Positions 3,261-18,579 are shown, counted from the stretch's first letter. The stretch is 24,000 nucleotides of DNA from Pseudomonadota bacterium (GCA_023436885.1 JAEZHI010000038.1:1-24000), one strand, 5' to 3'. Numbers and translations are program-made. Notes: a model not told the origin generated them from the letters alone.

Positions 3261-3992
3261 CTAGAAACGTACCAGGAGATAGGCGGGTTCCTGAGTATCG
3301 ACCCCGGCGATTGTGAAGCCGGCCGCAAGAGCTGCCTCCATTTCCCTGCGAACTCTCAAACGCTCTGCATTGGCGGTATCAGGATCGGTCCTGATCAGCC
3401 TGGCGAAATCGGACGGCAGGGCAATTCGGCGCGCAAGGGCTGTCTCATCCCTCGTCAGCATGGCCTCGCCCGATCGGCAGCGGGCATAGCGATCACCATC
3501 GAGCACCCAGTCAACCAGAAGCCGATCGGACGCTGTTCCTGCGTTGATGCCCCCCATCTCCCCATAATAGTCGCGATGGTAGGTTGAAGCCGTGGCTCCA
3601 AGACGAGCGATGTTGAGAGCGGCATTCGGAAGACGCAACGGATCATAGGTCCAGCGCACATGCCGGATACCGCGTTGAAGGCACCATTCTGCCTGATAGA
3701 GCTTCAGTTTGAGACCAAGCCCCAGACCTCTCGCTTCGACACGCACCGCCAGGCGGTGCGAGTGCTGCACGCCCGGCGTGACCGTTGGAAAGGCGAAAAC
3801 ATAGCCAATCAGACGGTCACCGAGAAAAGCGCCGGCAGCTAGGCCACCTTCCGCCTGGATGACCATCATCAGGTCGCCGGGATCGATCTTGTCGTCTGGC
3901 CCCCAAACATCGCGTTGAAGATCCTCCGCAGCGTGGAATTCGCTCATGCCCACGAGGTCGCGGATAATCGGCTGCGTTTCGGCGGGATTCAT
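3261..3992 (-). CDS. GNAT-fold acyl-CoA N-acyltransferase, possible N-succinyl/N-acetyl transferase partner of the upstream racemase-like enzyme
   Basis: 243 aa. The acyl-CoA binding motif-A-like segment is HRLAVRVEARGLGLGLKLKLYQAEW (R-x-x-G-x-G). Its ATG overlaps the stop of the upstream enolase-superfamily gene (ATGA, 3989-3992), which implies translational coupling. The acyl donor and acceptor cannot be read from the sequence. Confidence 0.65.
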   Translation of the reverse strand: MNPAETQPIIRDLVGMSEFHAAEDLQRDVWGPDDKIDPGDLMMVIQAEGGLAAGAFLGDRLIGYVFAFPTVTPGVQHSHRLAVRVEARGLGLGLKLKLYQAEWCLQRGIRHVRWTYDPLRLPNAALNIARLGATASTYHRDYYGEMGGINAGTASDRLLVDWVLDGDRYARCRSGEAMLTRDETALARRIALPSDFARLIRTDPDTANAERLRVRREMEAALAAGFTIAGVDTQEPAYLLVRF

Positions 3993-5107
3993 GTCGAGAA
4001 AGTCCTGACCGAGCGTGTGACGCCATCCAAGGCATCGCGATCAAGGTGAACGCCGATTCCAGATCCATCAGGCACCGGCATGCGCCCATCGATTGTCTCC
4101 AGCTTCTCGACGATGATATCGCGGTGGAAATAGCGACTTGCCGACGAAGTATCGCCGGGTTTCCGGAAGTTGGGCAGCGTCGAGAGATGGATATTGTGGG
4201 CGCGTCCGATACCCGATTCGAGCATCCCTCCGCACCAGACAGGAACATCAAAGGCAGCCGCAATGTCGTGGACCCGGATCGCTTCGGCGATGCCACCCAC
4301 CCGACCGACCTTGATATTGATGACGCGTGTCGCGTCAGCCTGGAGAGCCCTCCGAGCGTGGCCAACGCTTCGGATGCTTTCATCGAGACAGATCGGCGTC
4401 TTGAGCCGGCTCTGCAGCCGCGCATGGTCGACGATATCGTCGTGAGCGAGCGGTTGCTCAATGTATTCGAGATGGAAGTCATCAAGCCGGCCGAGTACCG
4501 CCCAATCCGAAAGGCGATAGGCGCTGTTGGCGTCGACCGAGAGCTTGATGGTAGGGAAGGATCGCCGCACCGCTTCCAAAAGCTCAATGTCATGTCCCGG
4601 CATGATCTTGAGCTTGATGCGCTTGTAGCCTTGCGCCACATGGCTCTCCACACGCCCAAGCGTCCCGTCGATCGCACCGATGCCCAGCGAGACACCGACG
4701 TCGACCGCATCGCCAGAGCCACCGATCAACGTCTTGAGCGGGAGATCTAGCCATTTGGCCCAAAGATCCCAAAAGGCCATTTCCACCGTGGCAAGTGCCA
4801 TGCGATTGCCACGCCAAGGCGAAAGCAACCTCTCTACCGCCGCTGGATTGTCGAAAGACCGCCCCATCATGGACGGCAGAATTGTCTCGCCGATCAGATC
4901 TATGGCACCCGCGATCGTCTCCTCAAGGAAGTCCGGCAACGGATCCATGACACCCTCGGCATAGCCCTCAAGCCCACCCGCGGACAATGTCACCAGCGGA
5001 AAGACGCGCTCGGTCATGGTGCCGGTCGAGATCGTGAAGGGATTGATGAGCGGCAACCTGACGAGCCTCAACTCGGCACGCTCAATAGGCGGAAGTGGAC
5101 GCGGCAT
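3989..5107 (-). CDS. Enolase-superfamily enzyme of the o-succinylbenzoate synthase / N-acyl(succinyl)amino acid racemase (MenC/NSAR) family
   Basis: KxK catalytic motif (YKRIKLKIMPG). Metal-ligand motifs SVDANSAY, EYIEQPL and CLDESI. Second catalytic Lys in INIKVGRVGG. C-terminal CGGMLESGIG. The track ORF starts at TTG 5164, but ATG 5107 (MPRPLPPIERAEL) is preceded by GGAGG with an 8-nt spacer and gives a family-typical length of about 372 aa. Confidence 0.85.
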   Translation of the reverse strand: MPRPLPPIERAELRLVRLPLINPFTISTGTMTERVFPLVTLSAGGLEGYAEGVMDPLPDFLEETIAGAIDLIGETILPSMMGRSFDNPAAVERLLSPWRGNRMALATVEMAFWDLWAKWLDLPLKTLIGGSGDAVDVGVSLGIGAIDGTLGRVESHVAQGYKRIKLKIMPGHDIELLEAVRRSFPTIKLSVDANSAYRLSDWAVLGRLDDFHLEYIEQPLAHDDIVDHARLQSRLKTPICLDESIRSVGHARRALQADATRVINIKVGRVGGIAEAIRVHDIAAAFDVPVWCGGMLESGIGRAHNIHLSTLPNFRKPGDTSSASRYFHRDIIVEKLETIDGRMPVPDGSGIGVHLDRDALDGVTRSVRTFST

Positions 5108-5167
5108 CGGCAGAACCTCCGGGAAGTGATCACGAACGGTAGGCTCCTGCAAGTTTCTTTGCAAGAT

Positions 5168-5191
5168 TGACAGCCGGCAATTTCCCTGTCA
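5168..5191. promoter_or_regulatory. Inverted repeat TGACAG-N12-CTGTCA in the divergent intergenic region (candidate operator)
   Basis: TGACAG (5168-5173) and CTGTCA (5186-5191) are exact reverse complements. They lie between the minus-strand racemase-like start (5107) and the plus-strand RpiR start (5215). With only 6-bp arms, the statistical support is modest. Confidence 0.3.
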
Positions 5192-5214
5192 GCGTCCATC
5201 TAAACACCGGAGAG

Positions 5215-6186
5215 ATGGGCGTGAAGGAATCGCGTGGCGCAAAGGAAACGTCGGGATCGGGCGCGGACCTTCGGCGCCGGATCGAAGAAAGCCTTGCTTC
5301 AGCCACCCACACCGAAGCAGCCATCGCCAGCTTCTTCCTGAGTGACCTTTCCAGCCTGCCCTTCGAAACAGCCGGATCGATTGCTCGCCGTATCGGCGTG
5401 TCGGAAGCCTCGGTCGGCCGCTATTGTCGCGCCATTGGCTTTCGTCATTTCAAGGACCTGAAGGGATCGCTCCGGATGGACCTTGGCGACCGCGCCTTTC
5501 TGATCGGCGACCGGCTGCGCGACTTTGCCGAGCGCAGCCGTGGCGGGGAGAGTCGCGCTCTCGAAAAGGAAATCGCGGCCATCGTTGCCAATCATGAGCT
5601 GGCGGCGACCCCGGCTTTTCGCGATGTGGCAGCGCGGCTTGCCCATGCCAAGACGGTGTTTGTCGCCGGCTTTCAGACGGAACGCGGCCATGCCCAGTAT
5701 CTGGCACACGGGCTTTCCTATCTTCGACCCGGCGTGCATTTGATGGATACAGCCGACGGCACTTTCGCCGACCTCCTGCTTGATACGCCGTCGGAGGCCG
5801 CACTGGTCATCATCGACGGCCGGCGCTATTCGCGACTCGCACGCCACCTGGGCATCGCGGCCCGGACAGCCGGCGCACATGTGACGCTGATTACTGACCC
5901 CTATTGCACCTGGGGTCGCGAAGCCGCAGACGAAATGTTCGCCGTTCGCACCGATTTCGATCAGTTCTGGGATGCAACGTCAGCCATGGCCAGCCTGATC
6001 GGGCTGCTGGTCAACGCAGTCTTCGGCGAGCTCGGACCTGCGGTTGAGGCCCGGCTCAGTGCGGTTTCAGCTCTCTATGGTGACTTTATCGGTCATACCG
6101 CCGCAGGTGGAAAAAGCATGGATCGGCCCGTGCGACGAATCACCCCAGTTCGCCCGCGCCGAAAGACCGAAACACCGCATCGATAG
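5215..6186 (+). CDS. RpiR/MurR-family transcriptional regulator (N-terminal HTH plus C-terminal SIS domain)
   Basis: The HTH region is ETAGSIARRIGVSEASVGRYCRAIGFRHFKDLK. A SIS-like body follows (TVFVAGFQTERGHAQYLAHGL...LVIIDGRRYS). The track ORF starts at TTG 5167. ATG 5215 is chosen because it leaves a family-typical N-terminal length and is preceded by GGAGAG, though the spacing is short. The start is uncertain. Confidence 0.85.
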   Translation: MGVKESRGAKETSGSGADLRRRIEESLASATHTEAAIASFFLSDLSSLPFETAGSIARRIGVSEASVGRYCRAIGFRHFKDLKGSLRMDLGDRAFLIGDRLRDFAERSRGGESRALEKEIAAIVANHELAATPAFRDVAARLAHAKTVFVAGFQTERGHAQYLAHGLSYLRPGVHLMDTADGTFADLLLDTPSEAALVIIDGRRYSRLARHLGIAARTAGAHVTLITDPYCTWGREAADEMFAVRTDFDQFWDATSAMASLIGLLVNAVFGELGPAVEARLSAVSALYGDFIGHTAAGGKSMDRPVRRITPVRPRRKTETPHR

Positions 6187-6224
6187 CGCCATTGGGTTGC
6201 TGGCCGGGCTCGCCAAAAGCAAAT

Positions 6225-6251
6225 GCGCCCGGATCCTGACGGATCGGGCGC
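6225..6251. terminator. Strong hairpin between convergent genes (probable bidirectional terminator)
   Basis: GCGCCCGGATCC (6225-6236), loop TGAC, then GGATCGGGCGC (6241-6251), giving 11 pairs with one bulged G. An A/T-rich run CCAATATTTAAG follows on the plus strand, and GCATTTGCTTTTGG follows on the minus strand. It lies 39 nt after the RpiR stop and 35 nt after the small minus-strand ORF stop. Confidence 0.5.
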
Positions 6252-6285
6252 CAATATTTAAGTCATCAGCCGAAGATCAAGCGTA

Positions 6286-6429
6286 TCAGAGACCGGCAAC
6301 TCGGCTGCTGCCAGCGCGGACATACTGACGCTCGCGGAATTCCGAACCGAAACCGCGCACGTAGCTCGTACCCCGCTCGACGGCGCGCGACTCGCGGAAC
6401 GTCTTGTTGAGGGCAGCCTGGGCGAACAT
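6286..6429 (-). CDS. Small basic hypothetical protein (47 aa)
   Basis: MFAQAALNKTFRESRAVERGTSYVRGFGSEFRERQYVRAGSSRVAGL. The ATG at 6429 is preceded by AGGAAAGGAAACCGAA, a strong Shine-Dalgarno with about 6-nt spacing. By my hand count about three quarters of third codon positions are G/C, which matches real genes in this window. I recognise no family. The track ORF (6286-6489) extends further upstream. Confidence 0.4.
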   Translation of the reverse strand: MFAQAALNKTFRESRAVERGTSYVRGFGSEFRERQYVRAGSSRVAGL

Positions 6430-6779
6430 TTCGGTTTCCTTTCCTGATGACAAACGGTCATATCCGATGCCGCTCATATAGGCCACCATTGCCTTATACG
6501 AAAGTCGTAATCAGTGAAGGCGGGCCAAAGAAAATCTGAAACCGGCGTTAGCTTATCCTTTACCCTTTCGATGAAGCGCAAGGTGGCGCCCCGAACGGCT
6601 GGACTCATCTTTCGCCCTCAAAATGGCGGCGCCAATTGGAAGAACGGGCTTTCAAGACCGACGGCCATCGGTAACCCTCCGGCTGGACAAGGCATTGTTT
6701 ATCTCGCTTGATGCGCCAAATCATGGTCGCATCGGCCTGAGCGGCCTATCATGGATGCGTCCGAAAACGAGGAACCGCC

Positions 6780-8318
6780 ATGACCGAGACGCTGAGCCAG
6801 CTGCGCAGGATCGCGCAGAACCCCACTCTGAGCTTCAAGCAGAAGGAACATGCGCTGGCGGTCGAGGCCGAGAACATGCTTCCCTATGTGCTGCTCGATG
6901 CCGAGACCCGTGCAGCACTCGATGCGCGCATCATCTGCGACATGTACGAGGGCAACGCGCCCTACAAGCCGCGATATGTGCTGCCTGATTACGAAGCTGT
7001 TCTCAAAAGCGGTTCGGCCCATCTCGAGCTGCCGAAGCCGGAAACGCTCGATGAGGCAATCAACACGCTGCAGATTGCCTATCACCATGTTCCCTCGGTG
7101 ACGGGCATGCCGGTGTTCATCGGCCATCTCGATGCGCTGTTGCTGCCCTTCTGCGACGGCGTTTCAGATGATGAGCTCTATCGCAAGATCAAGCTGTTCT
7201 GGCGCTATATCGACCGCGTTTTGCCGGACGCCTTCCTGCACGCCGACATCGGTCCCACCGACAATCGCGTTGCCCGGGCCATTCTGAGGGTCGACGCCGA
7301 GCTGAAGCAGATCGCCCCCAACCTCACCTTCCTTTACGATCCCGAGATCAGCGGCGAAGCCATTCTGCGTCTTTGCACCGACAACATCATCGCTTGCTCG
7401 AAACCGCATATCGCCAACCACCCTATTCACCGCGAGGTGTTCGATGACCCCGGTTATGCGATCGTCAGCTGCTACAACGCCTTGCCGCTCAGGGGCGGGG
7501 CTGCCTCGCTGGCTCGCATCAACCTGAAGAAGGTTGCCGAGGCGAGCGCCAGCGAAACCGATTTCCTCGACGCCCAACTGCCACACTACGTCAAGCTCAA
7601 TGCCCGCCTGATGCGCGCCCGCATCGACTACCTGTTCCGTCAGTCCGGATTCTTCGAGAACAACTTCCTGGTCGAAGAAGGCTGGATCGACAAGGATCGC
7701 TTCACGGCGATGTTCGGCATCTTTGCGATGGCCGAGGCAGTCAATCATCTGCAGGACCTGGCCGGCCGAGCCGGGCGCTACGGACATGACGCCAACGCCA
7801 ACGCACTCGGCCACCGCATTTCGGCGCGCCTCGCCGGACTCGTCGAGCGCGAACCGATGGAGCACGTCTGGCGCGGGGGTGCCATGCTGCACGCCCAGGC
7901 CGGCCTTTCCAGCGATGCCGGCACCACGCCGGGCGTGCGCATTCCCTATGGCAGCGAGCCTGATCCGGTGAGCCATGTGCAGGCCCTCTTGCCGCACCAC
8001 CGGTACTATCTCTCCGGCGTCTCGGAGATTCTCACCCTCGACGAAACGGTGCGGGGCAATCCGGAAGCGGTGTTCCAGCTCGCCAAAGGCGCCTTGCAGC
8101 TCGGCTTCCGCGAGTTCACCGCCAATGTCAGCGGCAACGATCTGGTGCGCGTGACCGGCTTCATGGTTCGGCTCTCCGACATCAAACTCTACAACGAGGC
8201 AAAAGGATCGCGCGTCAACACCACCGCGCTCGGCGCCGAGGCAGCTGGAACGGTGCACATTCTCGATCGCAAGCCGCGTGTCGTCGGGCTGGAACTGATG
8301 GCGGGTTCAGGTGCCTGA
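6780..8318 (+). CDS. YjjI-type (DUF3029-like) glycyl radical enzyme, substrate unknown
   Basis: 512 aa. The C-terminal glycyl-radical fingerprint is NDLVRVTGFMVRLSD, with the candidate radical Gly at residue 460 (GGC 8157-8159), 52 residues from the C-terminus. The RBS GAGGAA lies upstream of the ATG. The stop overlaps the start of a glycyl-radical activase gene by 8 nt. The family call is from memory of the E. coli YjjI/YjjW pair (similar size and the same partner) and was not aligned. Confidence 0.75.
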   Translation: MTETLSQLRRIAQNPTLSFKQKEHALAVEAENMLPYVLLDAETRAALDARIICDMYEGNAPYKPRYVLPDYEAVLKSGSAHLELPKPETLDEAINTLQIAYHHVPSVTGMPVFIGHLDALLLPFCDGVSDDELYRKIKLFWRYIDRVLPDAFLHADIGPTDNRVARAILRVDAELKQIAPNLTFLYDPEISGEAILRLCTDNIIACSKPHIANHPIHREVFDDPGYAIVSCYNALPLRGGAASLARINLKKVAEASASETDFLDAQLPHYVKLNARLMRARIDYLFRQSGFFENNFLVEEGWIDKDRFTAMFGIFAMAEAVNHLQDLAGRAGRYGHDANANALGHRISARLAGLVEREPMEHVWRGGAMLHAQAGLSSDAGTTPGVRIPYGSEPDPVSHVQALLPHHRYYLSGVSEILTLDETVRGNPEAVFQLAKGALQLGFREFTANVSGNDLVRVTGFMVRLSDIKLYNEAKGSRVNTTALGAEAAGTVHILDRKPRVVGLELMAGSGA

Positions 8319-9180
8319 CGGCGTGGTCGCCGTCAGCAAATTCCTGACCTGGTCGGTGGTCGACGGGCCGGGAAACCGCTTCGTGCTGTTCCTGCAGGGG
8401 TGCAATTTCCGTTGCGTGACCTGCCACAACCCACACACCATCGGCATCTGCAACGACTGCGGCAGCTGCGTTGCCGTATGTCCGTCGGGCGCCCTGACCA
8501 AGACCGGACGCAAGGTCGTCCACGACCCGGCCCCTTGCATTTCCTGCGATAGTTGCCTTGCCGCCTGCCCGACACGCGCCAATCCCATGGTGCGGCGGAT
8601 GACGGTCGCAGATATCCTCGATCTCCTCCGCCGCAACGGAGCCTTTCTCAATGGCCTTACCGTGTCGGGCGGCGAGGCAACGATCCATCTCGAATTTCTG
8701 ATCGACCTCTTCAAGGCGGTTCGGGCCGCACCCGATCTATCGCACCTCACCCTCTTCATCGACAGCAACGGCCATTTGCCGGCCGAGGATTGGCAGAGAA
8801 TACTCCCCCTGACCGATGGCGTGATGCTGGATATCAAGGCTTTCGATCCCGAACGCCACCGCCGTCTCACCGGCGCTGACAATACACTCTCGATTGCTTC
8901 GGCCAGATTGCTGGCGGCAGCCGGCAAACTCTATGAGCTGCGCTTCTTGATGATTCCCGGCGAGACCGATCGTTCCGAAGAAATTGCGGCGCTCGCGGCA
9001 ATGGCGAACGAACTCGGTGTGGACACCCGGCTCCGTCTCAATGCTTTCCAGCACCACGGCGTCCGCGGCGCGGCTGCGACGTGGGCGGCAATGCCACGCG
9101 AAGGCGTCGAGACGGCTGCTGCGACGCTCAAGGCTGCGGGCATAAGTGAGGTGGCGGTGCCTTCGGTCTGGTTACCCTGA
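8311..9180 (+). CDS. Glycyl-radical enzyme activating protein (radical SAM, YjjW-type with a ferredoxin-like insert)
   Basis: GPGNRFVLFLQGCNFRCVTCHNP carries the CX3CX2C radical-SAM cluster motif (8401-8424). Two further Cys clusters follow, CNDCGSCVAVCP and CISCDSCLAACP. The SAM-binding motif SGGEAT is present. The GTG start at 8311 overlaps the upstream stop (GTGCCTGA). An alternative GTG lies at 8323. Confidence 0.9.
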   Translation: MPDGVVAVSKFLTWSVVDGPGNRFVLFLQGCNFRCVTCHNPHTIGICNDCGSCVAVCPSGALTKTGRKVVHDPAPCISCDSCLAACPTRANPMVRRMTVADILDLLRRNGAFLNGLTVSGGEATIHLEFLIDLFKAVRAAPDLSHLTLFIDSNGHLPAEDWQRILPLTDGVMLDIKAFDPERHRRLTGADNTLSIASARLLAAAGKLYELRFLMIPGETDRSEEIAALAAMANELGVDTRLRLNAFQHHGVRGAAATWAAMPREGVETAAATLKAAGISEVAVPSVWLP

Positions 9181-9319
9181 GACGGAAAGTTCCCACTCGA
9201 TCCGCCATCGTCAATTGGCGGGACTCAATGAACTCTATGTCGGGCGTCGAATTTCCTTCGCCCACCGGCTTGCTCATGTTCGGCACAATGACGCCGTTCA
9301 CCTGAGGAGCCGCCCGACC

Positions 9320-10837
9320 ATGTTGATGCACCATCTTCTTTATCGCGCTGCCGAGCGCGCACCAGACGCTGTTGCGCTCAACTGGGTGGACCGCAACTTG
9401 GCTCTCACCGCCGCCGAGGCAGTGGATGGGATGGAGAGGATGGCGGGTGCACTGGCGTATCTCGGCGTCGCGCCCGGCGACCGGGTGCTTGTCTTCGCTC
9501 ATAACGGCATGGACTATCTGCTTGCCATGCTGGGAACCTGGCGGCTCGGCGCTATATCGGCGTTGGTCAACGTCAAATATGCAGACGACCTTGCCTATTA
9601 CGTCGACGACCATCGCCCCAAGGCAATCATCTACACTCATGACATGGAGAAGCCCGTAAAGGCTGCGGCCGCCGCCGTGGGATGCGTCGCGCACCTCATC
9701 TGCATGGATGGCCCGCAGGAAGGCGCCCATGCGTTGCCCGAACTTTTATCGGCTCGCTTCGCACCGCCGATGGATCCCGAAGACGCCACCGCCATCGCCC
9801 ACCTGTCCTACACCTCCGGCACGACGGGCAAACCCAAGGGCGCCTGCCTCGCTCACGAACCGACGGTCACTGCCGCACGCTGTATCGGCGAGCGGTTGCG
9901 CATCCGCGCCGCCGATCGCTCTTTCGGGCCGACGGCCTTGTCGAGCTCCTATCAACTGGTCGCCAATCTGCTGCCACCGATGGCAGCGGGCGCCACCGTC
10001 AACGTCATGGGCAAATGGACCCAGGCGACCGGCTGGGAGGCTCTCGAGCGAACCGGCGCTACGTTTTTCGTCGGCAATCCGGTCGTGCTGACCGAACTTC
10101 TTGAGGAATCTCAGGCACGCGGCCGGCTGCCATCGCCGCTGCGCTTCGGCCTTTCCGGCGGTGGGCCGGTGCCTCCAACCCTGCGGAAGGCATTCCGCGA
10201 CGTGCTGAAGCTGCCGCTGGTCGAGAGTTTCGGTCAGAGCGAGATTGGCGGTTTCTTCGCCCTCGGTTTTCCCGAACTCGAAACCGACGACAGCAAGCTT
10301 GTCCGTGTCGGCCCCGGCACGCCAGACAAGGAAGTGGCCATCCTCACAACAGCGGGAACCAGAGCACCCATCGGAACGGTGGGTGAAATCTGCCTGAGAG
10401 GCGGCTTCATGGCTGGCTACTGGGGCCGGCCCGAGAAAACCGCCGAGGCAACACGCGGCGGCTGGCTGCACTCCGGAGATCTCGGAAGCATCGATGCCGA
10501 TGGGTATGTCACGATGCGTGGCCGCCTCGCCGAACTGGTCACAGTGGAAGGGATCGACTGGTTCCCTCGCGATGTTGAGGAAGCTCTTGCCGCCCAACCC
10601 GGCGTGCTGCTGGCCGCATTGGTCGGCGTGCCCAATCCCAAGGGTGGCAACACACCGATCGCCTTCATAACCGAACGCCCGGGCGCAACGGTCGATGTCG
10701 CGGCGCTCAAGGCCGCCATCGCGCCGCTCGTCTCTTACGATGTGGCACCTCTGATCATCCGCAAGGCGACAAGCCTGCCCATGACGCCAACCGGCAAGAT
10801 CGCCAAGGCCACCCTTGCCGCCGAAGCCGCAGCGTGA
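9320..10837 (+). CDS. Adenylate-forming acyl-CoA synthetase / AMP-dependent ligase (ANL superfamily)
   Basis: AMP-binding core motif LSYTSGTTGKPKG, then GQSEIGG, GWLHSGDLG and the C-terminal catalytic Lys region PMTPTGKIAK. The track ORF begins at 9146, but ATG 9320 (MLMHHLLYRAAERAPDAVAL) follows GAGGAG with a 10-nt spacer and matches the usual family N-terminus. Confidence 0.9.
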   Translation: MLMHHLLYRAAERAPDAVALNWVDRNLALTAAEAVDGMERMAGALAYLGVAPGDRVLVFAHNGMDYLLAMLGTWRLGAISALVNVKYADDLAYYVDDHRPKAIIYTHDMEKPVKAAAAAVGCVAHLICMDGPQEGAHALPELLSARFAPPMDPEDATAIAHLSYTSGTTGKPKGACLAHEPTVTAARCIGERLRIRAADRSFGPTALSSSYQLVANLLPPMAAGATVNVMGKWTQATGWEALERTGATFFVGNPVVLTELLEESQARGRLPSPLRFGLSGGGPVPPTLRKAFRDVLKLPLVESFGQSEIGGFFALGFPELETDDSKLVRVGPGTPDKEVAILTTAGTRAPIGTVGEICLRGGFMAGYWGRPEKTAEATRGGWLHSGDLGSIDADGYVTMRGRLAELVTVEGIDWFPRDVEEALAAQPGVLLAALVGVPNPKGGNTPIAFITERPGATVDVAALKAAIAPLVSYDVAPLIIRKATSLPMTPTGKIAKATLAAEAAA

Positions 10838-11655
10838 GTGACGACATGACCTCCTTTTCCTGGTGGAACCTCTCCACCGCGGACTTCGCGGGCCGCGATC
10901 TGTCAAGAACAGTGGTCGTACTGCCCGTCGGAGCAATCGAACAACACGGCCCACATTTGCCGGTCAGCGTCGACGCAGCGATCAACGCCGGCGTACTGGC
11001 CGATGCACTGACGAAGCTTGCTGCCGACACTGACGTTCTGGTCCTGCCTCCCCTGCCCTATGGCAAATCCGACGAGCACATCGCTTTCCCGGGAACGATT
11101 GCCGTCACAGGCGAAACGCTGGCGCGCATCTGGTTCGAAATCGCCGAAAGCGTCCACCGGGCCGGTGTCCACAAGCTGGTCTTCTTCAATGCCCATGGCG
11201 GCCAGATCGCCCTGATCGACATCGTCTGCCGCGAAATTCGCGTGAAGCTCGGCATGCTGGCCGTCGCCTGCTCTTGGTTCCGCATCACCGCCGTCGATGA
11301 CATCATTTCAGCCGCCGAATCGACGCATGGCATCCACGGGGGGGACCTGGAGACCAGTGTCATGCTGCATCTCCATGGCGACCTCGTTGCCATGGAGAAA
11401 GCCGAGGACTTCGTGCCGCTGACCGTCGAGATCGAGGCGTCCGGCAGCCTTTTGACCGCCGAGGGAGCTGTCGGTTTCGGCTGGCAGGCACAGGATCTTC
11501 ACCCCTGTGGCGTCGCAGGAAATGCCAGGATCGCCACAGCCGAAAAAGGACGGATCATCGTCGACCGCGCCGGATCGGCTTTCGTCGCCTTGCTTGGGGA
11601 TGTTGCAGGCTTCGATCTCGACCGATTGACGAGGCGCACGGCGTTTTCTCAATGA
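10834..11655 (+). CDS. Creatininase-family metal-dependent amidohydrolase
   Basis: LPVGAIEQHGPHLPVSVD, PYGKSDEHIAFPGTI, FFNAHGGQ and HGGDLETSVML match the creatininase-fold signature segments (the family of creatinine amidohydrolase, ArfB and MftE). The GTG at 10834 overlaps the ligase stop (GTGA). An alternative ATG lies at 10846. Confidence 0.85.
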   Translation: MSDDMTSFSWWNLSTADFAGRDLSRTVVVLPVGAIEQHGPHLPVSVDAAINAGVLADALTKLAADTDVLVLPPLPYGKSDEHIAFPGTIAVTGETLARIWFEIAESVHRAGVHKLVFFNAHGGQIALIDIVCREIRVKLGMLAVACSWFRITAVDDIISAAESTHGIHGGDLETSVMLHLHGDLVAMEKAEDFVPLTVEIEASGSLLTAEGAVGFGWQAQDLHPCGVAGNARIATAEKGRIIVDRAGSAFVALLGDVAGFDLDRLTRRTAFSQ

Positions 11656-11659
11656 TCCC

Positions 11660-12445
11660 TCAGGCTTTCGCAGCAAGCCGCCTCAACCGGCGGCGGCGAT
11701 AGGCCTCGCTCAGGCCAACGAGTACCGCCGTCAAGACCAGAACGACGACCTGCATGGCATTGAGATCGGGTCTGAGCTCCCGCCGGAATTCGGAGGCCAC
11801 CATCAGCGACAGCGGTTGTGTTCGGCCGGCGAGAAACATCGCGATGGTCAGATCAGCCAGCGACAGGATGACACCCACCGAATAGGCGCCCGACAAAGCC
11901 GGCCTGATCTGCGGCAGCAACACGCGCAGGAATGCCTGCCATGGCGAAGCGCCGAGATCGCGCGCCGCTTCGATCAGACGACGGTCGAATCGGATCATGA
12001 CCGCCGATATCAAGGCGGTGGCAAAGGGAAGCGCCACCAGCGATTGGGCGAGAATCAACGCCGTCGCCCCGCGCTCGAAGCCGATGCGACTCATGATCAT
12101 CGCCTGTGCGATCGACAGGACACTCTTCGGAACCAGAAATGGGACGAGCAACAGCACCGCAAAGAGGCCGCGCCAACGAAACCCAGGCGCTGTCAGGGCA
12201 AGCGAAGCCATCAGGCCGAACAGCATGGCGAGGATGCCAACCGGCTGGGAAATCAGGAACGACGTGACGAAGCCCTTGAGGAAATTCTCGTTCTGCGCCA
12301 GCTCGCGATACCATTCGAGCGTGAAGCCTGACAGCGGGAACGCCATTAGGGCCGAATCGTTGAAGGAAAACACGGCGAGCACGACGAGCGGCAGATAGAG
12401 AAATCCTGCCGCGATGATGAGCACGGAAAGACTGGACCGTCCCAT
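11660..12445 (-). CDS. ABC transporter permease (PotC/PotI-like, binding-protein-dependent inner-membrane component)
   Basis: About 261 aa and multi-pass hydrophobic. The EAA-type loop is LIEAARDLGASPWQAFLRVLLPQIRPAL. The ATG at 12445 overlaps the upstream permease stop (TGATG). The track uses TTG 12448. Confidence 0.9.
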   Translation of the reverse strand: MGRSSLSVLIIAAGFLYLPLVVLAVFSFNDSALMAFPLSGFTLEWYRELAQNENFLKGFVTSFLISQPVGILAMLFGLMASLALTAPGFRWRGLFAVLLLVPFLVPKSVLSIAQAMIMSRIGFERGATALILAQSLVALPFATALISAVMIRFDRRLIEAARDLGASPWQAFLRVLLPQIRPALSGAYSVGVILSLADLTIAMFLAGRTQPLSLMVASEFRRELRPDLNAMQVVVLVLTAVLVGLSEAYRRRRLRRLAAKA

Positions 12446-13305
12446 CAAACCCTCCCCATCACGGCGCGCGCACCTTTAAAGCGCAGCAGCAATCCGGCCA
12501 TCGCCGACGCCACGAGGAACAATGTTGCGAGCAGAGCCAAGGCCAGAGCCGAAGCGAGCGGCCAGTCGAAGGCCGTTCCGAACAGATTGTCAACGAGCGC
12601 CATGGCCGTGGAACCCGACGTGCCGCCCAGAAGGCTAGGCGTCAGCATCTCACCTGCGGACAGGGCAAAAACCGTGAGGCTGCCGGCGGCAAGGCCGGGG
12701 GTGGTGAGTGGGAAAACGACACGGGAAAAGGCATCGACCGGTCGCGCGCCCAGATCGCGTGCCGCCTCGATCAGCCGTCGATCGATCATTTCGGCCGATA
12801 CCCAGATGGCGAGCACCATGAAGGGCAGATTGTTGTAGGTGAGGACGAGGCCGATGGTAAAGGGCGAAAACAACAGGAATTTCAATGGTTCATCAATAAG
12901 GCCTAATCCCTGGAGTATCGAGTTGATAAGGCCCTCTCCGCCCAGCACCATACGCCAGGCGTAGATGCGCACGATCTCGCCAGTGTAGAGCGGTGTCAGC
13001 AGTACGATGATGGCGAGCCCCTTTCCCGAGGCTGCAAGGCGCGTCAACGCCAGCGCTACCGGGTAGCCGAGAAAGGCCGTGAACATCGTGGTTGCAACAC
13101 CCGAAAGCACGGCCTTGCCAATCAGGAACCAGTCAGTCGAAGAGGCGAACAGCTCTCCCCATGCCCTGAATGAAAAGGCCGGGACCAGCTCGAAATCTTC
13201 CACCTCGTAAAAGCTGAAAGCAACGAGAACGGCGAGTGGCGCAAGACATCCCGCCACGATCGCCGCCGCAACCGGCAGCGCAAGATGGCGCTGGCGGAAG
13301 ATCAT
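12445..13305 (-). CDS. ABC transporter permease (PotB/PotH-like)
   Basis: 286 aa and hydrophobic. The EAA loop is LIEAARDLGARPVDAFSRVVFPLTTPGL. The ATG at 13305 overlaps the ATPase stop (ATGA). Confidence 0.9.
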   Translation of the reverse strand: MIFRQRHLALPVAAAIVAGCLAPLAVLVAFSFYEVEDFELVPAFSFRAWGELFASSTDWFLIGKAVLSGVATTMFTAFLGYPVALALTRLAASGKGLAIIVLLTPLYTGEIVRIYAWRMVLGGEGLINSILQGLGLIDEPLKFLLFSPFTIGLVLTYNNLPFMVLAIWVSAEMIDRRLIEAARDLGARPVDAFSRVVFPLTTPGLAAGSLTVFALSAGEMLTPSLLGGTSGSTAMALVDNLFGTAFDWPLASALALALLATLFLVASAMAGLLLRFKGARAVMGRV

Positions 13306-14396
13306 GAGACAACCCTTGTGATGAAGCCGCGGCCGGCATCAAACCAGAGAGCCACCGGCGAGCCTGGCGAATAGAGCGTTTCGGCAGCGAAGCGCAGGGG
13401 CAATCCGGACACGTCGGCCTCGATCATGCTGCGCTCGCCCTGGAAAACACAGTTGCTGACCGTTCCGCTGAAGGTCGCCGTCCCGTCCCCTCGCGTCGAC
13501 AACAGCTCGGGTCGGATTACCAACACTGCGGTATCGCCGCTGACGAGCCCATCGGCAACGGGTGCGGTAATCGCTCCAAGCGCCGTTTCGATGGTCGCCT
13601 CGTCACCGAGGCGCTGCAGGATCTTGCCCTCGACCAAGGTAGAGTTGCCGATGAAGTCAGCGACGAAGCTGTCAGCGGGACGGCTATAGATGGTCTGCGG
13701 GTCTGCCTTCTGAGCGATATGTCCCTTGTTCATCACCACCACAATATCGGACAGTGCAAAGGCTTCCTCCTGATCGTGCGTCACATAGACGAAGGCAATA
13801 CCCAGGCGGCGCTGCAGGGCTTTCAGCTCGATCTGCAAATGCGCGCGCATCTTGCGATCGAGAGCGGACAAGGGTTCGTCCAAAAGAAGAAGCCGCGGCT
13901 CGGCGATGATCGACCGCGCGACGGCGACACGCTGTTGCTGCCCGCCGGAGAGCTGATGCGGAAAGCGGTCACCGAAATCAGCCATATGCACAGCGTCGAG
14001 AGCGCGGCGCACGCGTGCTGATAAGTCGGAGACGCCGCCCCTGAGCTTTAGCGCGAAGGCGACATTCTCGTTGACCGTGAGATGGGGGAAGAGAGCATAC
14101 GATTGAAAGACGGTGTTGACGGGACGACGCTCGGGCGGAACGCCGGCGAGCGGCGTGTTGTCGAGCAGCATATCACCGGCATTCGGCGTCTCGAAACCGG
14201 CGATCATCCGGAGAACCGTCGTCTTGCCGCACCCTGACGGCCCGAGCAAGGTCAGGAAGGCACGTTCGGGAACATCGAGATCGATGCCATCCACCGCCGT
14301 CGCGCGACCGAATTTCTTGACGACACCTCGCATGGCAAGAAGCAGCGGCGACAATGCCGGCTCCGTCCGCTTTTGAATACCGCTATCCACCACCAT
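13302..14396 (-). CDS. ABC transporter ATP-binding protein (PotA/PotG-like, with C-terminal regulatory/TOBE-like extension)
   Basis: Walker A GPSGCGKTT, Q-loop FQSYALFPH, signature LSGGQQQRVAVAR, Walker B LLLLDEP and H-loop VTHDQ. The first ATG is at 14396. The track starts one codon earlier at TTG 14399. Confidence 0.92.
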   Translation of the reverse strand: MVVDSGIQKRTEPALSPLLLAMRGVVKKFGRATAVDGIDLDVPERAFLTLLGPSGCGKTTVLRMIAGFETPNAGDMLLDNTPLAGVPPERRPVNTVFQSYALFPHLTVNENVAFALKLRGGVSDLSARVRRALDAVHMADFGDRFPHQLSGGQQQRVAVARSIIAEPRLLLLDEPLSALDRKMRAHLQIELKALQRRLGIAFVYVTHDQEEAFALSDIVVVMNKGHIAQKADPQTIYSRPADSFVADFIGNSTLVEGKILQRLGDEATIETALGAITAPVADGLVSGDTAVLVIRPELLSTRGDGTATFSGTVSNCVFQGERSMIEADVSGLPLRFAAETLYSPGSPVALWFDAGRGFITRVVS

Positions 14397-14411
14397 CAAT
14401 GCCCCGGTTTC

Positions 14412-14481
14412 CGAGGTCGGACTTGCGAAGCCCGACCTCGTTCGACAAGCAAACTCCGCACCGCCCGGCCAGGACCGGGCG
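14412..14481. repeat. Two intercistronic GC-rich palindromic hairpins between the binding-protein gene and the ATPase gene
   Basis: Hairpin 1 is CGAGGTCGG (14412-14420) pairing with CCGACCTCG (14432-14440), around an internally palindromic loop A-CTTGCGAAG-C. Hairpin 2 is CGCCCGG (14462-14468) pairing with CCGGGCG (14475-14481), with loop CCAGGA. No T-tract follows either one on the coding (minus) strand. Confidence 0.6.
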
Positions 14482-14495
14482 ATGCGAGCGGCAGA

Positions 14496-15578
14496 TCAAG
14501 CAGCCTTGACCTCGTTCCAGACCTTCAGCCACTCCGAATAATTGTCCGGCGCAACCGGCCACATGAAGTTCTGCATGACCGAGAGATCATCAACGAAGAT
14601 CGCCTCCTGCTTCTCGTGGCTGAGCTTGTCGCGGATAATCGACGAGGTCGTCGCGTAGTTGCCGATCTCGGCGATGGTTGAGGCATAATCGGCGCCAAGC
14701 AGATAGTCGGCGAATTTGTAGGCGATTTCCACCTTCTCGTCCGGCAAGCTGGCCGGAATGCCGAAGCAATCGCACCAACCCATGATGCCGGCCTTTGGCT
14801 TGGCCATCGCCACCTTCATCTTGTCCTTCAAGGCGTCATAGGGCACACGCCAGGAGAAGGCGGCCGTCACCTCGCCAGTGGCGAAGAGATTGGTCAGATC
14901 GCCGATGGTCTGCCAGTAAGTCCTGAGAAGCGGCTTCTGGGCGATCAACGCCTTCTTGACCTCAGCCAGCTCATCGGATGTCAGTAGGAAGGCACGCTCG
15001 CGCGGAATGCCGATGTGCAGGGCGCCAATGGCGATTGATTCCAGCGCGTAGTCGCGCATGGCAAGCTGACCTTTGAACTTCGGGTCGAACAGCGTCGAGT
15101 AGGTCGGCTCTTCGGTATAGATGTCGGACCGGTAGACGATGGGGTTGAGACCCCAGAGATAGGGAATGGCGTATGTCGCGCCGTCTTCGCCCTTCACCTT
15201 CGGCGTCGTCTTGAACACATCATACATGTGCGCAACGTTCGGAACCTTGGAGAGATCGAGCGGCTTCAGTACCTTGGCCTTGATGTACCGCCAGGCACCG
15301 TTCAAAGAGGGATTGACGATGTCCCAGTCGGAAGCCGAACCGGTCTTCAGCGCCGCGAACTGGGCATCTTCGCTGGACAGGAAGGACAGCTTCACCTTGG
15401 TGCCGGTCGCCTTCTCGAACGCCGCGACATATTCGGGATGACCGTTTGAATCCCAGGTTGCCCAGACAATCTCGGAGACGGCCGCCGAGGCCCGCCCCAT
15501 CGGCCCAAGGAGCGAAAGTCCTGCGCCGGCTGCCAATCCCCCGAGCATCTGGCGACGGTTGAGTATGAAACGCTGCAT
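14496..15578 (-). CDS. Periplasmic substrate-binding protein of a PotD/PotF-type (polyamine/opine-like) ABC importer
   Basis: About 360 aa from MQRFILNRRQMLGGLAAGAGLSLLGPMGRASA (signal peptide with an RR motif, ending ASA). It is the first gene of a four-gene minus-strand transporter operon. ATG 15578 is preceded by GAGAGGGG. The upstream 28 codons of the track ORF are probably not translated. The ligand cannot be inferred from the sequence. Confidence 0.85.
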   Translation of the reverse strand: MQRFILNRRQMLGGLAAGAGLSLLGPMGRASAAVSEIVWATWDSNGHPEYVAAFEKATGTKVKLSFLSSEDAQFAALKTGSASDWDIVNPSLNGAWRYIKAKVLKPLDLSKVPNVAHMYDVFKTTPKVKGEDGATYAIPYLWGLNPIVYRSDIYTEEPTYSTLFDPKFKGQLAMRDYALESIAIGALHIGIPRERAFLLTSDELAEVKKALIAQKPLLRTYWQTIGDLTNLFATGEVTAAFSWRVPYDALKDKMKVAMAKPKAGIMGWCDCFGIPASLPDEKVEIAYKFADYLLGADYASTIAEIGNYATTSSIIRDKLSHEKQEAIFVDDLSVMQNFMWPVAPDNYSEWLKVWNEVKAA

Positions 15579-15767
15579 GTGAGACCCCTCTCGCTTGCGG
15601 AAAACAGTCCTGTTCCCTTTTATTTTGGGAAAGTCTGCCTTGGGCCTCCGGGCACCGTCCATATGGCGGTCACAATAGACACTATAGGCACATGCCTAGG
15701 CCGGGTGCTTATGCATGCCGAGAATCTCGACTAAGATCGCTTATGCTGATCAATCAAATGGACCGCC

Positions 15768-16256
15768 ATGCCGCTTCCCGATCTCGACCATGCCATATAT
15801 CTCCGTCGCACCTTTGCCATTGCGGCAGAGACAGCGAAGAACGGAAGTCACCCGTTCGGCGCTCTTCTGGTGAGCGGCGACGGCACGATCCTGATGGAAC
15901 AGGGCAACGCCTATCTGCCCGATCACGACATGACTGGCCACGCCGAGCGTGTGGTCGCAACCCGTGCATCGCAGCGCTTTCAGCCAGCCGAACTTGTCAA
16001 CGCGACGCTCTACTCGTCGGCTGAACCCTGTGCGATGTGTGCTGGCGCTGCCTATTGGGCAGGCATCGGCCGTATTGTTTATGGCCTTTCGGAAAACACG
16101 CTGAAGCAGATCACCGGCAATCATCCGGAGAACCCGACGCTTGACCTGCCCTGCCGGATCGTTCTGGAAAGTGGCCAGCGCCCGGTGGAAGTCGTTGGCC
16201 CACTGCTTGAAGAAGAAGCTGCAGAACTCCACCGATCGTTTTGGGCACAGCGTTGA
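15768..16256 (+). CDS. Zinc-dependent nucleoside/nucleobase deaminase (CMP/dCMP deaminase fold; guanine-deaminase/TadA-like)
   Basis: 162 aa. The zinc-binding motifs HAE (MTGHAERVV) and PCxxC (SAEPCAMCAGA) have the typical spacing. Confidence 0.85.
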   Translation: MPLPDLDHAIYLRRTFAIAAETAKNGSHPFGALLVSGDGTILMEQGNAYLPDHDMTGHAERVVATRASQRFQPAELVNATLYSSAEPCAMCAGAAYWAGIGRIVYGLSENTLKQITGNHPENPTLDLPCRIVLESGQRPVEVVGPLLEEEAAELHRSFWAQR

Positions 16257-16262
16257 GCGGGC

Positions 16263-17234
16263 TTACTCGGCAGCCACAGGAAACATTTGCGGCACAGCTT
16301 CGCTGGACCATTTCAAGTCGGCAACTGCAGCCTTCACCAAATGGCGGAACCATGTGTGGGCCGGGGAATGGTGCTTGCAATCGTGCCAGAGCAGATAAAA
16401 ATCCATCAATCCAAACTCTGCTGGCGCATTAATGACAGCAAAGTCCCCCTGGTCAGCGATCCGCTCGGCGAAGGGTGCTCCGGTGGTGAAAACCAAATCG
16501 GAACCTGCCAGCATATGCGGAACAATGGCGTATTCCGGCACCGAGGCGGCGATATGCCGGCTAAGACCGAGCTCCATCAAACGGCCGTCGATTGGGCTGT
16601 ACTGCTTCATGACGTCAGCCGACGGAGAAAGATGTCGCTCGGACAGATATAGATCCATGCCCAGCGAGCCTATGGTCTTCGCAAGCCGATGATTGGCAGC
16701 GACAACGCACTTGATCGGCGTCGATAACAGCGGCGCCAAACGCAACTGCTCAGGCGGCCGCGGCCAATTTCCGACAACAAGATCAAGCGAGCCATCCGCG
16801 AGATGAGCCATCAGCTCATCATGGCCGGGAAGCGTTGCCACATCGATTGACGCCTTTGGCGCCTCCTCGGCAAGTCGCGCAAAGATTCGCGGCAGAAAAG
16901 CAGCATCGAGACAATTGGCAGCGGCTATGCGAAAGCGCCGCTCCGTGCGCAATGGGTCAAAACTGGGCGGCGGCGCCAGTATCGCGTCGATATCGGCCAG
17001 CAACCGCTGCAGCGCGGCTCGCAGTTCCAAGCCACGCTCGGTCGGTACGAGAGCCCCACCCGAACGAACCAGAATCGGATCACCGATCAGCTCGCGCAGC
17101 CGCTTCAGAGCCAGACTGACCGTCGGTTGCGTCTGACCCAGGATTTCGGCAGTACGAGACACACTGCATTCCGTGACGAGCAGCAGCAGGGTCCGCATCA
17201 GGCGGACATCGAGGGCACCATTGACGGGCTCCAT
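16263..17234 (-). CDS. LysR-family transcriptional regulator
   Basis: 323 aa. The N-terminal winged HTH is LDVRLMRTLLLLVTECSVSRTAEILGQTQPTVSLALKRLRE, followed by a LysR substrate-binding body. ATG at 17234. Confidence 0.9.
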   Translation of the reverse strand: MEPVNGALDVRLMRTLLLLVTECSVSRTAEILGQTQPTVSLALKRLRELIGDPILVRSGGALVPTERGLELRAALQRLLADIDAILAPPPSFDPLRTERRFRIAAANCLDAAFLPRIFARLAEEAPKASIDVATLPGHDELMAHLADGSLDLVVGNWPRPPEQLRLAPLLSTPIKCVVAANHRLAKTIGSLGMDLYLSERHLSPSADVMKQYSPIDGRLMELGLSRHIAASVPEYAIVPHMLAGSDLVFTTGAPFAERIADQGDFAVINAPAEFGLMDFYLLWHDCKHHSPAHTWFRHLVKAAVADLKWSSEAVPQMFPVAAE

Positions 17235-17353
17235 AAGCGCTCGATCCTCAAATCCGGTACGGTTACGCTAAGAGCAAAGCACCAAACGTGCCAAGCCGAG
17301 CGCAAAACGTCGCAGGACCGAGCGCCAGTGGTGAGAAGACTAAATCAGGAAAA

Positions 17354-17443
17354 TGGCGGAGAGGGAGGGATTTGAACCCCCGATACCCTTGCGAGTATGC
17401 CGCATTTCGAGTGCGGTGCAATCGACCACTCTGCCACCTCTCC
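17354..17443 (-). tRNA. tRNA-Ser (anticodon CGA), class II with a long variable arm, encoded CCA end
   Basis: The minus strand reads GGAGAGG-TG-GCA-GAGTGGTCGAT-TGC-A-CCGCA-CTCGAAA-TGCGG-CATACTCGCAAGGGTATC-GGGGG-TTCAAAT-CCCTC-CCTCTCC-G-CCA. It has a 7-bp acceptor stem, a 3-bp D stem, a 5-bp anticodon stem with loop CU-CGA-AA, an 18-nt variable arm and a T-loop TTCAAAT. Total length 90 nt. Confidence 0.95.
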
Positions 17444-17486
17444 GCGGTGCTTTTTAGGATGTGATCCCGGTCGAAAGCGGCGCGGA

Positions 17487-17515
17487 CCATAACCGCGAGA
17501 AATGCCTCTGGCAAG
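17487..17515 (-). promoter_or_regulatory. Candidate sigma-70 promoter for tRNA-Ser
   Basis: The minus strand reads CTTGCC (17515-17510), a 17-nt spacer, then TTATGG (17492-17487). This resembles the alphaproteobacterial CTTGAC-N17-CTATAT consensus and lies about 45 nt upstream of the mature tRNA 5' end. This is a pattern match only. Confidence 0.3.
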
Positions 17516-17655
17516 AGGGGCAAAAGCCTATCGGAACGGTTTTTTGACCGCCGCCAACACCTAATCCGAAACCATTCGCCAGGCAGCGAGTGGAAAGTGT
17601 CCTTCATCGTTGACCGGAAGAGGCTTTCCGTGTAGGGAAAACGCGGCTTAATGGG

Positions 17656-17687
17656 AGCCCGGCTAATTTGTCCGGGTTTTTTGTTTT
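17656..17687 (+). terminator. Terminator-like hairpin plus U-tract inside the rplU upstream region (possible leader attenuator or 3' end of a small RNA)
   Basis: AGCCCGG (17656-17662), loop CTAATTTGT, CCGGGTT, then a TTTTTTGTTTT run (17677-17687). It lies 67 nt upstream of the rplU ATG on the same strand. The stem is short, with 5 GC pairs plus A-T and G-T extensions. Confidence 0.4.
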
Positions 17688-17753
17688 GCTGAACAGTCGC
17701 GCGCAACCAATGCGGCGCGGCCAAAAACCATCTGAAGAAGGACTGGCACGACC

Positions 17754-18068
17754 ATGTTCGCAGTAATCAAGACCGGCGGCAAGCAGTACAAGGTTGCCGT
17801 TGATGACGTGTTCGACATCGAGAAGATCGAGCTTGAGGACGGCGCTGCCGTCACCTTCGACGAAGTGCTGGCTGTTGGCTCCGACGCTGGCGTGACCGTT
17901 GGCGCCCCCACCGTTGCTGGCGCCACCGTCGTCGCCGAGGTGGTCGAGCAGACCCGCGGTCCCAAGGTGATCTCCTTCAAGAAGCGCCGCCGCCAGAACT
18001 CCAAGCGCAAGCGCGGCCATCGGCAGCTGCTGACCACGGTGAAGATCACCGCGATCAACGCCGCCTGA
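17754..18068 (+). CDS. rplU: 50S ribosomal protein L21
   Basis: [14 protein letters not shown]... and ...[20 protein letters not shown] are unmistakable L21 sequence. 104 aa. Confidence 0.97.
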
Positions 18069-18180
18069 CGAAATTCCTTTCCGACAGACTGCTGCCGGAA
18101 CCTGACCCGATAACCGTCCATAAAGGTGTTGAGCGCCGCACCGCTCCGCCACCGGACGATACGACAGACTGGAGACTGAA

Positions 18181-18450
18181 ATGGCTCACAAAAAAGCAGG
18201 CGGCTCGTCCCGCAACGGTCGCGATACCGCTGGCCGACGCCTCGGCGTGAAGAAGTTCGGCGGCGAAGCCGTCATCCCAGGCAACATCATTATCCGTCAG
18301 CGCGGCACCCAATGGCACCCGGGCGCCAACGTTGGCATCGGCGTCGATCATACGATCTTCGCCCTCACGGAAGGCAATGTGTCTTTCGCCACCAAGAGCA
18401 ACGGCCGAGTCTACGTTTCGGTCGTTCCGACGACGGCGGCAGCTGAGTAA
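18181..18450 (+). CDS. rpmA: 50S ribosomal protein L27
   Basis: [29 protein letters not shown]...[24 protein letters not shown] is canonical L27. 89 aa. RBS GGAGA lies upstream. Confidence 0.97.
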
Positions 18451-18560: not shown

Positions 18561-18579
18561 GGAGCGCTAGGAGAGCCCC

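Follow-up and report, generated by a model that had tools for sequence, protein, structure and literature searches.

The DNA considered here is a stretch of 24,000 nucleotides (hereafter the window; Pseudomonadota bacterium, GCA_023436885.1 JAEZHI010000038.1:1-24000) in which, between positions 6780 and 15578, a YjjI-family glycyl radical enzyme (GRE) and its YjjW activase are followed by an adenylate-forming ligase, a creatininase-family hydrolase and a converging ATP-binding cassette (ABC) importer. A sequence-only reading of this region had joined all of these genes into one unit for the uptake and degradation of a single small molecule. We conclude, with considerable confidence, that two independent units lie side by side: the yjjI-yjjW pair with its upstream region (unit A, 6667-9180, plus strand, borders drawn by comparison with relatives) and an 8.17-kb catabolic cassette at a tRNA-Ser(CGA) site (unit B, 9181-17347), which an indel alignment delimits as a presence/absence block running from the yjjW stop codon to the 3' end of the tRNA gene. 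The genes themselves are as the sequence-only reading described them: all the listed open reading frames (ORFs) and family assignments were confirmed by profile scores, and so were the 8-nt overlap of yjjI with the activase gene, the four-gene importer (11660-15578) that converges on the hydrolase gene and ends 4 nt from its stop codon, and the RpiR/SIS regulator that ends at 6186, upstream of yjjI. The four-enzyme GRE pathway composed from them is, judged by comparison of genomes, not a real unit.

The borders of the cassette are visible in close relatives. The window has a G+C content of about 61% with no compositional break. It belongs to a Pleomorphomonas-like alphaproteobacterium, its nearest genome relatives being Pleomorphomonas species, whose YjjI proteins are 91-94% identical to that of the window. 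In P. oryzae DSM 16300 (L013), the window positions 6666-9181 and 17348-20080 are contiguous, 9182-17347 being represented by 39 bp (L013 12403-12441); the same tRNA-Ser(CGA) is thus reached 39 bp after yjjW, and the P. oryzae YjjI is 92% identical to that of the window. In the metagenome-assembled genome D110 (L007), the interval is replaced by an unrelated 2.3 kb that encodes a 655-aa GGDEF-EAL protein (L007 12402-14695), while seven strains beside the window (L001-L006 and L008) keep the cassette. Because the interval is empty, GGDEF-EAL-filled or cassette-filled among relatives, we regard it as a variable site beside a tRNA gene. The tRNA-Ser(CGA) gene (17354-17443, minus strand; ARAGORN, and Rfam RF00005 at 57.7 bits) forms the right border at its 3' end. 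At the other side, homology to all Pleomorphomonas loci starts at window position 6666/6667 (6712 in L006) and the DNA further left varies from strain to strain, which makes the conserved upstream region of yjjI (6667-6779, plus strand) the left border of unit A. Downstream of the tRNA gene (18580-23696) are two GNAT acetyltransferase genes followed by obg, proB and proA, a core housekeeping context that places the cassette in the chromosomal backbone.

The independence of the two units is equally clear from more distant genomes. An alignment scan with YjjI, one genome per species, gave 291 relatives, the best 80 of which were taken with 10-kb flanks and searched by tblastn with all window proteins. 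A locus was counted as informative if its sequence ran on for 2.5 kb or more beyond yjjW, which held for 72 of the 80. Orthologues of the ligase and the hydrolase follow yjjW in seven informative loci (L001-L006 and L008), all of them Pleomorphomonas-type with YjjI at least 91% identical. The remaining 65, with YjjI 65-92% identical, carry yjjIW without ligase or hydrolase orthologues and span other Pleomorphomonas, Oryzibacter, Rhodobacteraceae, Roseibium, Hoeflea, Devosia, Pseudovibrio, Woeseiaceae, Lysobacterales and Rhodoferax; their sporadic 25-45% matches to the ANL enzyme or to PotA/PotB are generic paralogues in variable positions. One Paludibacterium locus (Betaproteobacteria) and one Desulfobulbaceae locus likewise have yjjIW alone, the cassette genes being absent. 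Conversely, neither yjjI nor yjjW occurs in any of the 89 loci (825 kb) that make up the set of hydrolase and ligase homologues. Since yjjIW persists without the cassette and the cassette without yjjIW, the GRE and its activase stand outside the ligase/hydrolase/importer unit. The sequence-only reading had accepted that it would fall if its genes were not syntenic in other genomes, and for the GRE, the activase and RpiR they are not; the GRE-centred pathway is not supported. What survives of the proposed uptake-plus-degradation unit is the ligase, the hydrolase and the importer, which recur together in two other genomes (L081 and L166), and the unit extends further than had been listed, taking in a deaminase and a LysR-type regulator and reaching to the tRNA-Ser(CGA) gene; without the regulator and the tRNA gene its true extent cannot be recognised.

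Unit A is a straightforward member of a known family. The YjjI protein (512 aa; 6780-8318, plus strand) scores 683 bits against TIGR04040 (cut-off 498) and 661 bits against PF11230, the match covering profile positions 1-485 of 485. It carries the glycyl radical motif RVTG460F (R457-V-T-G460-F), in agreement with the RVxG[FYW] pattern, and R457, V458, T459 and G460 are invariant in an alignment of 12 sequences. From Alpha-, Beta- and Gammaproteobacteria to Desulfobulbaceae, identity among YjjI proteins is about 70%. The YjjW-family radical S-adenosylmethionine (SAM) activase (289 aa; 8311-9180, plus strand; TIGR04041 344 bits, cut-off 250) has C31x3C35x2C38 (CX3CX2C) as well as two ferredoxin-type clusters, CxxCxxCxxxC. 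The two genes are adjacent in 79 of the 80 loci, and we regard them as an operon of two genes, complete in itself and with a short upstream region to itself, encoding an orphan GRE and its radical-SAM activase, and as a free-standing pair in many Proteobacteria. Compared with Escherichia coli YjjI/YjjW, the window pair matches at full length above both curated cut-offs and keeps the two-gene arrangement; the glycyl motif reads VTG465YMVR in the E. coli protein and RVTG460FMVR here, and there is no difference of substance.

The control of unit A may be anaerobic. FNR/FixK-like half-palindromes (TTGAC-N4-ATCAT, TTGCG-N4-TTCAA) are found at a fixed distance from the start of yjjI, about -71 to -75, in no fewer than 11 loci (among them L032, L040, L046, L050, L067, L072, L073, L075 and L078-L080), and TTGA-N6-TCAA is matched at seven or more of its eight positions in 22 of the 80 yjjI upstream regions, compared with 8% of random windows. 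This suggests that yjjIW would be under anaerobic control by a regulator of the FNR/CRP family. Upstream of the window yjjI we found no canonical FNR or NsrR box; there is a TTGAT-N7-ATCAT element of non-canonical spacing at about 6705-6721 (about -75). The commonest neighbour of yjjI is a divergent AraC-type regulator (16 of 80 loci, for example L010, L014, L017, L028 and L074), which has a cupin-like N-terminus and an HTH_18 domain and lies about 110-170 nt upstream of yjjI; it is found likewise in the Paludibacterium locus and, in L170, at 5957-6835, and is absent from the window. Clustering of all flanking ORFs in the 80 loci revealed no conserved metabolic neighbour, so genome context is unlikely to solve the substrate of YjjI. 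As a separate observation, five Rhodobacteraceae loci (L030, L042, L044, L045 and L049) have U32-peptidase-like and SCP2-like genes on the same strand directly upstream of yjjI; judged by eye, these resemble ubiU/ubiV and ubiT of oxygen-independent ubiquinone synthesis.

The cassette encodes a ligase, a hydrolase, an importer, a deaminase and a regulator, which we assigned with Pfam and with the curated cut-offs of NCBIfam/TIGRFAM; RNA genes were sought with ARAGORN and Rfam and structural relatives by sequence search of the PDB. The first gene (9320-10837, plus strand) specifies a 505-aa adenylate-forming enzyme of the ANL superfamily (AMP-binding 219 bits, AMP-binding_C 34 bits) that is probably an acyl-CoA ligase. 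It reaches no substrate-specific NCBIfam equivalog at its cut-off, the top match being PRK06187 (299 bits, cut-off 476), and its nearest PDB relatives are feruloyl-, oxalyl-, fatty-acyl- and benzoyl-CoA ligases at about 150 bits. Next is the metal amidohydrolase of the creatininase family (10834-11655, plus strand; PF02633 235 bits, cut-off 31). Its closest homologues are 269 aa long and begin at a later Met, for which reason the start is likely to be the ATG at 10846 instead of 10834; the ligase and hydrolase genes would then be separated by an 8-nt gap here, not joined by the 4-nt overlap that the sequence-only reading reported and that is genuine in L081, L090, L166 and L169. We consider the hydrolase a PF02633 family member and not a creatininase proper, as it scores 104 bits against TIGR04448 (creatininase proper, EC 3.5.2.10), under the cut-off of 235. 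Like Pseudomonas putida creatinine amidohydrolase (PDB 1J2T/1Q3K), which belongs to the same Pfam family, it keeps the E, H, D, H and HGG..E positions that align with 1Q3K and are invariant in 12 orthologues; we take these to be the metal ligands and catalytic His of creatininase. The differences from 1J2T/1Q3K are the sub-cut-off score, weak PDB alignments (61-69 bits) and the replacement of the creatininase HYE stretch by HGG, as in the uncharacterised 3LUB protein.

The importer genes, all on the minus strand, encode a PotC-like permease (11660-12448; PF00528, PotC model 141 bits, cut-off 326), a PotB-like permease (12445-13305; PotB model 145 bits, cut-off 348), a PotA-like ATPase with a TOBE domain (13302-14399; PF00005 and PF08402, PotA model 364 bits, cut-off 482) and a periplasmic binding protein of the PotD/PotF fold (14496-15578; SBP_bac_8 92 bits), whose start at 15578 is backed by homologue alignment. 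The binding protein falls under each equivalog cut-off (PotD 72 bits against 582, PotF 69 against 636, YdcS 66 against 725), its top PDB matches are PotD and PotF at about 77 bits, and its specificity is predicted to differ from theirs. For ligase, hydrolase and binding protein alike, the PDB searches returned distant matches only, none of which names a substrate. Divergent from the binding-protein gene is the gene of a 162-aa CDA-fold zinc deaminase (15768-16256, plus strand; PF00383 64 bits, HAE and PCxxC motifs), and the LysR-type regulator (16263-17234, minus strand; HTH_1 and LysR_substrate domains) completes the set. The regulator gene falls within the indel and is conserved along with the cassette. 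A 45-nt repeat shared by potA and 16113-16157 was considered and set aside: the copies are just 76% identical, and blastx of the surroundings against PotA gave a non-significant E value of 0.32.

The DNA between yjjW and the ligase gene (139 nt, 9181-9319) is part of the cassette and holds a candidate operator, CAATGAACTCTAT, at 9226-9238 (plus strand), 82-94 nt upstream of the ligase start. A second copy, CAATAGACACTAT, is at 15673-15685 (plus strand) in the intergenic region between the divergent binding-protein and deaminase genes. These two sites are the only matches to CAATRR-N3-CTAT in the 24-kb window (9226 and 15673), and related boxes are found at both equivalent intergenic sites of L081 and L166.

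The cassette recurs without yjjIW, which shows what belongs to it. Both hydrolase and ligase have abundant homologues in many Hyphomicrobiales (57-77% identity). Orthologues of the ligase (63-77% identity) are widespread, with a creatininase-family gene either next to them or no more than 2.5 kb away. All four ligase-orthologue contexts that were examined contain the ligase-hydrolase pair, a metagenome scan added five further loci that have it, and the count over the whole set of hydrolase/ligase loci is 11 of 89. In L081 and Methyloraptor L166, the cassette genes are about 55-82% identical to those of the window at the amino-acid level (67-82% for the ligase, hydrolase, PotCBA, binding protein and deaminase). 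L081 has the same convergent and divergent layout (ligase 73%, hydrolase 70%, PotC/B/A 67-71% with both permeases at 71%, binding protein 79-82%, deaminase 72%, LysR 68-70%), with an extra diaminopropionate ammonia-lyase-like gene and a CN-hydrolase; the thought of a diaminopropionate-containing substrate that these two genes raised was dropped, as both are absent from the window. In L166, the ligase, hydrolase, PotCBA, binding protein (within the same 79-82%) and deaminase (70%) are in the window arrangement as far as the locus extends, accompanied by a CocE/NonD hydrolase and a flavin monooxygenase. A. vitis L083 shares the LysR (54%), the importer (binding protein 71%) and the hydrolase (63%), and has a flavin monooxygenase in the ligase slot. 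A tRNA gene is near the cassette in both L081 and L166: a tRNA-Arg(CCG) is 237 nt before the ligase gene in L166 (8688-8764), and one with an adjoining phage-type integrase is about 6 kb upstream of the cassette in L081 (906-2203).

The partners that recur with the ligase and hydrolase genes are deaminases (CDA-fold, or CodA-type "cytosine deaminase", PRK07583 at 634 bits), oxidative enzymes (FAD_binding_4 oxidases, flavin monooxygenases, Rieske and 2-oxoglutarate oxygenases, and a molybdenum hydroxylase of the xanthine-dehydrogenase type), and also a CocE/NonD hydrolase, an arylamine N-acetyltransferase homologue, an acyl-CoA dehydrogenase and importers of PotD or NMT1 type. As a set, they indicate the oxygen-dependent breakdown of a nitrogen heterocycle or cyclic amide. 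GREs are sensitive to oxygen, and one is not expected amid such chemistry. Some details of these loci deserve mention in their own right. In Pseudorhodoplanes L168, a CodA-type deaminase (7544-8995) directly upstream of the ligase-hydrolase pair replaces the CDA-fold enzyme, so that two unrelated deaminase folds occupy the same slot. A CocE/NonD (Peptidase_S15) gene, absent from the window, very often follows the creatininase-family gene (L084 10001-12455; L092, L166, L167 and L168), and Methylobacterium has a creatininase-family and CocE/NonD pair without the ligase beside uricase and OHCU-decarboxylase genes.

From these families and neighbours we propose how the cassette might work. What comparison of sequences shows is the gene content, the borders of the indel, the independence of the two units and the recurrence of the cassette; the tie between regulator and operator, the sequence of reactions and the class of substrate are inferred. 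The LysR protein would sense the substrate or an intermediate and act on the two promoter regions that bear CAATRR-N3-CTAT, the yjjW-ligase gap and the binding-protein/deaminase intergenic region, so that three transcription units would be turned on, one for the PotABCD-like importer, one for the zinc deaminase and one for the ligase and hydrolase together. The imported compound may be an amino-substituted N-heterocycle or a cyclic amide or guanidine, resembling cytosine, creatinine or guanine. The deaminase would strip the exocyclic amine, the creatininase-family metallo-hydrolase would open the ring amide, and the ANL enzyme would activate the carboxylate so formed, probably to a CoA thioester, from which breakdown could continue.

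Three other explanations of the region have to be weighed. The first develops the sequence-only reading: importer, hydrolase, ligase and GRE would work one after another on a single small molecule, with RpiR in control. The four plus-strand genes are indeed collinear and close, no terminator is predicted between yjjW and the ligase gene, and the arrangement is retained in seven related Pleomorphomonas loci; the link is, however, limited to one sublineage, and in P. oryzae and L007 it ends sharply at the yjjW stop codon. The counts given above tell against a common pathway in both directions (65 of 72 yjjIW loci without the other genes, 0 of 89 hydrolase/ligase loci with the GRE), the cassette comes with a LysR and an upstream region of its own and is usually partnered by oxygen-dependent enzymes, and RpiR segregates with a different block of genes. 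Synteny has thus already largely refuted this explanation, and we hold it to be highly improbable. The comparison with known GRE catabolic clusters leads in the same direction. In those of choline trimethylamine-lyase (CutC/CutD), hydroxyproline dehydratase and 4-hydroxyphenylacetate decarboxylase, the GRE and the accessory genes are conserved together from one taxon to another. The window resembles them in having a GRE and activase beside transport and accessory-enzyme genes, but here the accessory genes are not co-conserved with the GRE, and YjjW scores far below the cut-offs of those activases. A narrower version, in which the orphan GRE has been recruited under anoxia to a product of the ligase or hydrolase (e.g. 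a CoA thioester or a ring-opened amine) in the cassette-bearing Pleomorphomonas sublineage, would, if true, provide the first substrate clue for YjjI; its sole basis is adjacency in one clade with no terminator between yjjW and the cassette, and we give it very little credence.

The same adjacency could instead reflect regulatory coupling without a common pathway, the ligase-hydrolase pair being co-expressed under anoxia by read-through from the yjjI promoter. All these genes are on one strand and the 139-nt gap contains no terminator-like hairpin, yet the gap is cassette DNA with a box shared with the importer/deaminase promoter region, and in L081 and L166 the ligase gene has its own upstream region with no gene reading into it; we think this coupling unlikely. 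As for the importer, it could be an ordinary spermidine/putrescine system (PotABCD/PotFGHI) unconnected to the neighbouring enzymes. Like these systems it consists of four genes, with permeases and an ATPase of the same families and a binding protein of the same fold, and its best family and PDB matches are Pot proteins (PotD and PotF in the PDB). Yet all four subunits score under the equivalog cut-offs (the binding protein by the widest measure, 72 and 69 bits against 582 and 636), the entire importer lies within the indel, and the binding protein is 71-82% identical to its counterparts in L081, L166 and A. vitis L083, where members of the same hydrolase, deaminase and LysR set lie next to it. 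The genes inherited together with the window importer are those of a deaminase and a hydrolase, not those of polyamine metabolism, which argues against plain polyamine uptake and leaves this explanation very unlikely.

Several observations weigh against our preferred reading of two independent units, one of them a cassette at the tRNA-Ser(CGA) site. As a tRNA-associated island, the cassette shows the exact position at the tRNA 3' end, the polymorphism of presence, absence and replacement, and the self-contained set of regulator, transporter and enzymes that are familiar from tRNA-adjacent catabolic islands. It differs from them in that its ORFs include no integrase, no att-type direct repeat or duplicated tRNA 3' end was found at its borders in the window, and it has no GC or other compositional anomaly; either history, an old insertion or the later loss of an ancestral block from P. 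oryzae, is equally possible. With no terminator-like site found after yjjW, read-through co-transcription is possible in this strain. CAATRR-N3-CTAT was derived post hoc from the very sites in which it was counted, so its statistics are not independent and the box is a candidate LysR operator only. The YjjI synteny counts cover the 80 loci closest to the query among the 291. Lastly, no cassette enzyme reaches an equivalog cut-off and our literature search found no description of a cluster or cassette that combines a creatininase-family enzyme with a CoA ligase; the substrate class proposed above is accordingly drawn from family memberships and neighbours.

The consequences for the two units differ. 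YjjI is a long-standing orphan among GREs, for which our literature search found no characterised function: a preprint of August 2026 calls it an "uncharacterized putative GRE", with probe labelling of E. coli Gly465 detected, and the one suggestion of a function comes from an older biclustering study, which reported co-expression of yjjI with nitrate/nitrite genes, a hint of nitrogen metabolism (PMC3228777). Had its pathway neighbours been conserved, they could genuinely have pointed to the substrate; the lead is false, and the window gives no handle on the question. The cassette, on the other hand, is a modest new target for substrate discovery, recognisable by an ANL ligase gene in tight linkage with that of a creatininase-family hydrolase, as a rule accompanied by deaminase, ABC-importer and LysR genes. 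Recurrent, uncharacterised and conventional in kind, it occurs widely among Hyphomicrobiales and in soil metagenomes, and we suggest it as a testable candidate for an undescribed route, of an ordinary kind, for the catabolism of a nitrogen heterocycle or cyclic amide.

The scans for regulatory RNA and signals added little. Across 6000-18700, Rfam matched the tRNA alone, with no riboswitch that could name a ligand, and promoter and terminator prediction was uninformative in this GC-rich DNA (2 promoter-like sites, 2.1 expected).

Further upstream, the RpiR/SIS regulator (5167-6186, plus strand) is divergent from a block on the minus strand (269-5164) that encodes ManC, a phosphomannomutase, a GNAT protein and an enolase-superfamily MR_MLE enzyme. 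RpiR stays beside this block even where 5-6.6 kb of other DNA precedes yjjI, and since it is always with the MR_MLE block, comparison offers no evidence for RpiR as a regulator of yjjI. The ManC/phosphomannomutase/GNAT/MR_MLE block is more likely to be the RpiR regulon, as a sugar-acid or sugar-phosphate unit. The NCBIfam name "SapR" (a Burkholderia virulence regulator) was rejected for the RpiR protein as not informative, at 188 bits against a cut-off of 500.

The DNA between RpiR and unit A is variable (window 6187-6666; L001-L004 and L006-L008), and in several strains it is taken up by a K+-channel-like ORF (about 300 aa) or by other DNA, 5-6.6 kb in length. In the window it holds a small ORF on the minus strand (6286-6489) of 67 aa, or of about 47 aa if read from an internal Met (MFAQAALNKTFRESRAVERG), which lies inside a stretch of about 300 bp that is 76-84% conserved in L001, L007 and L013.

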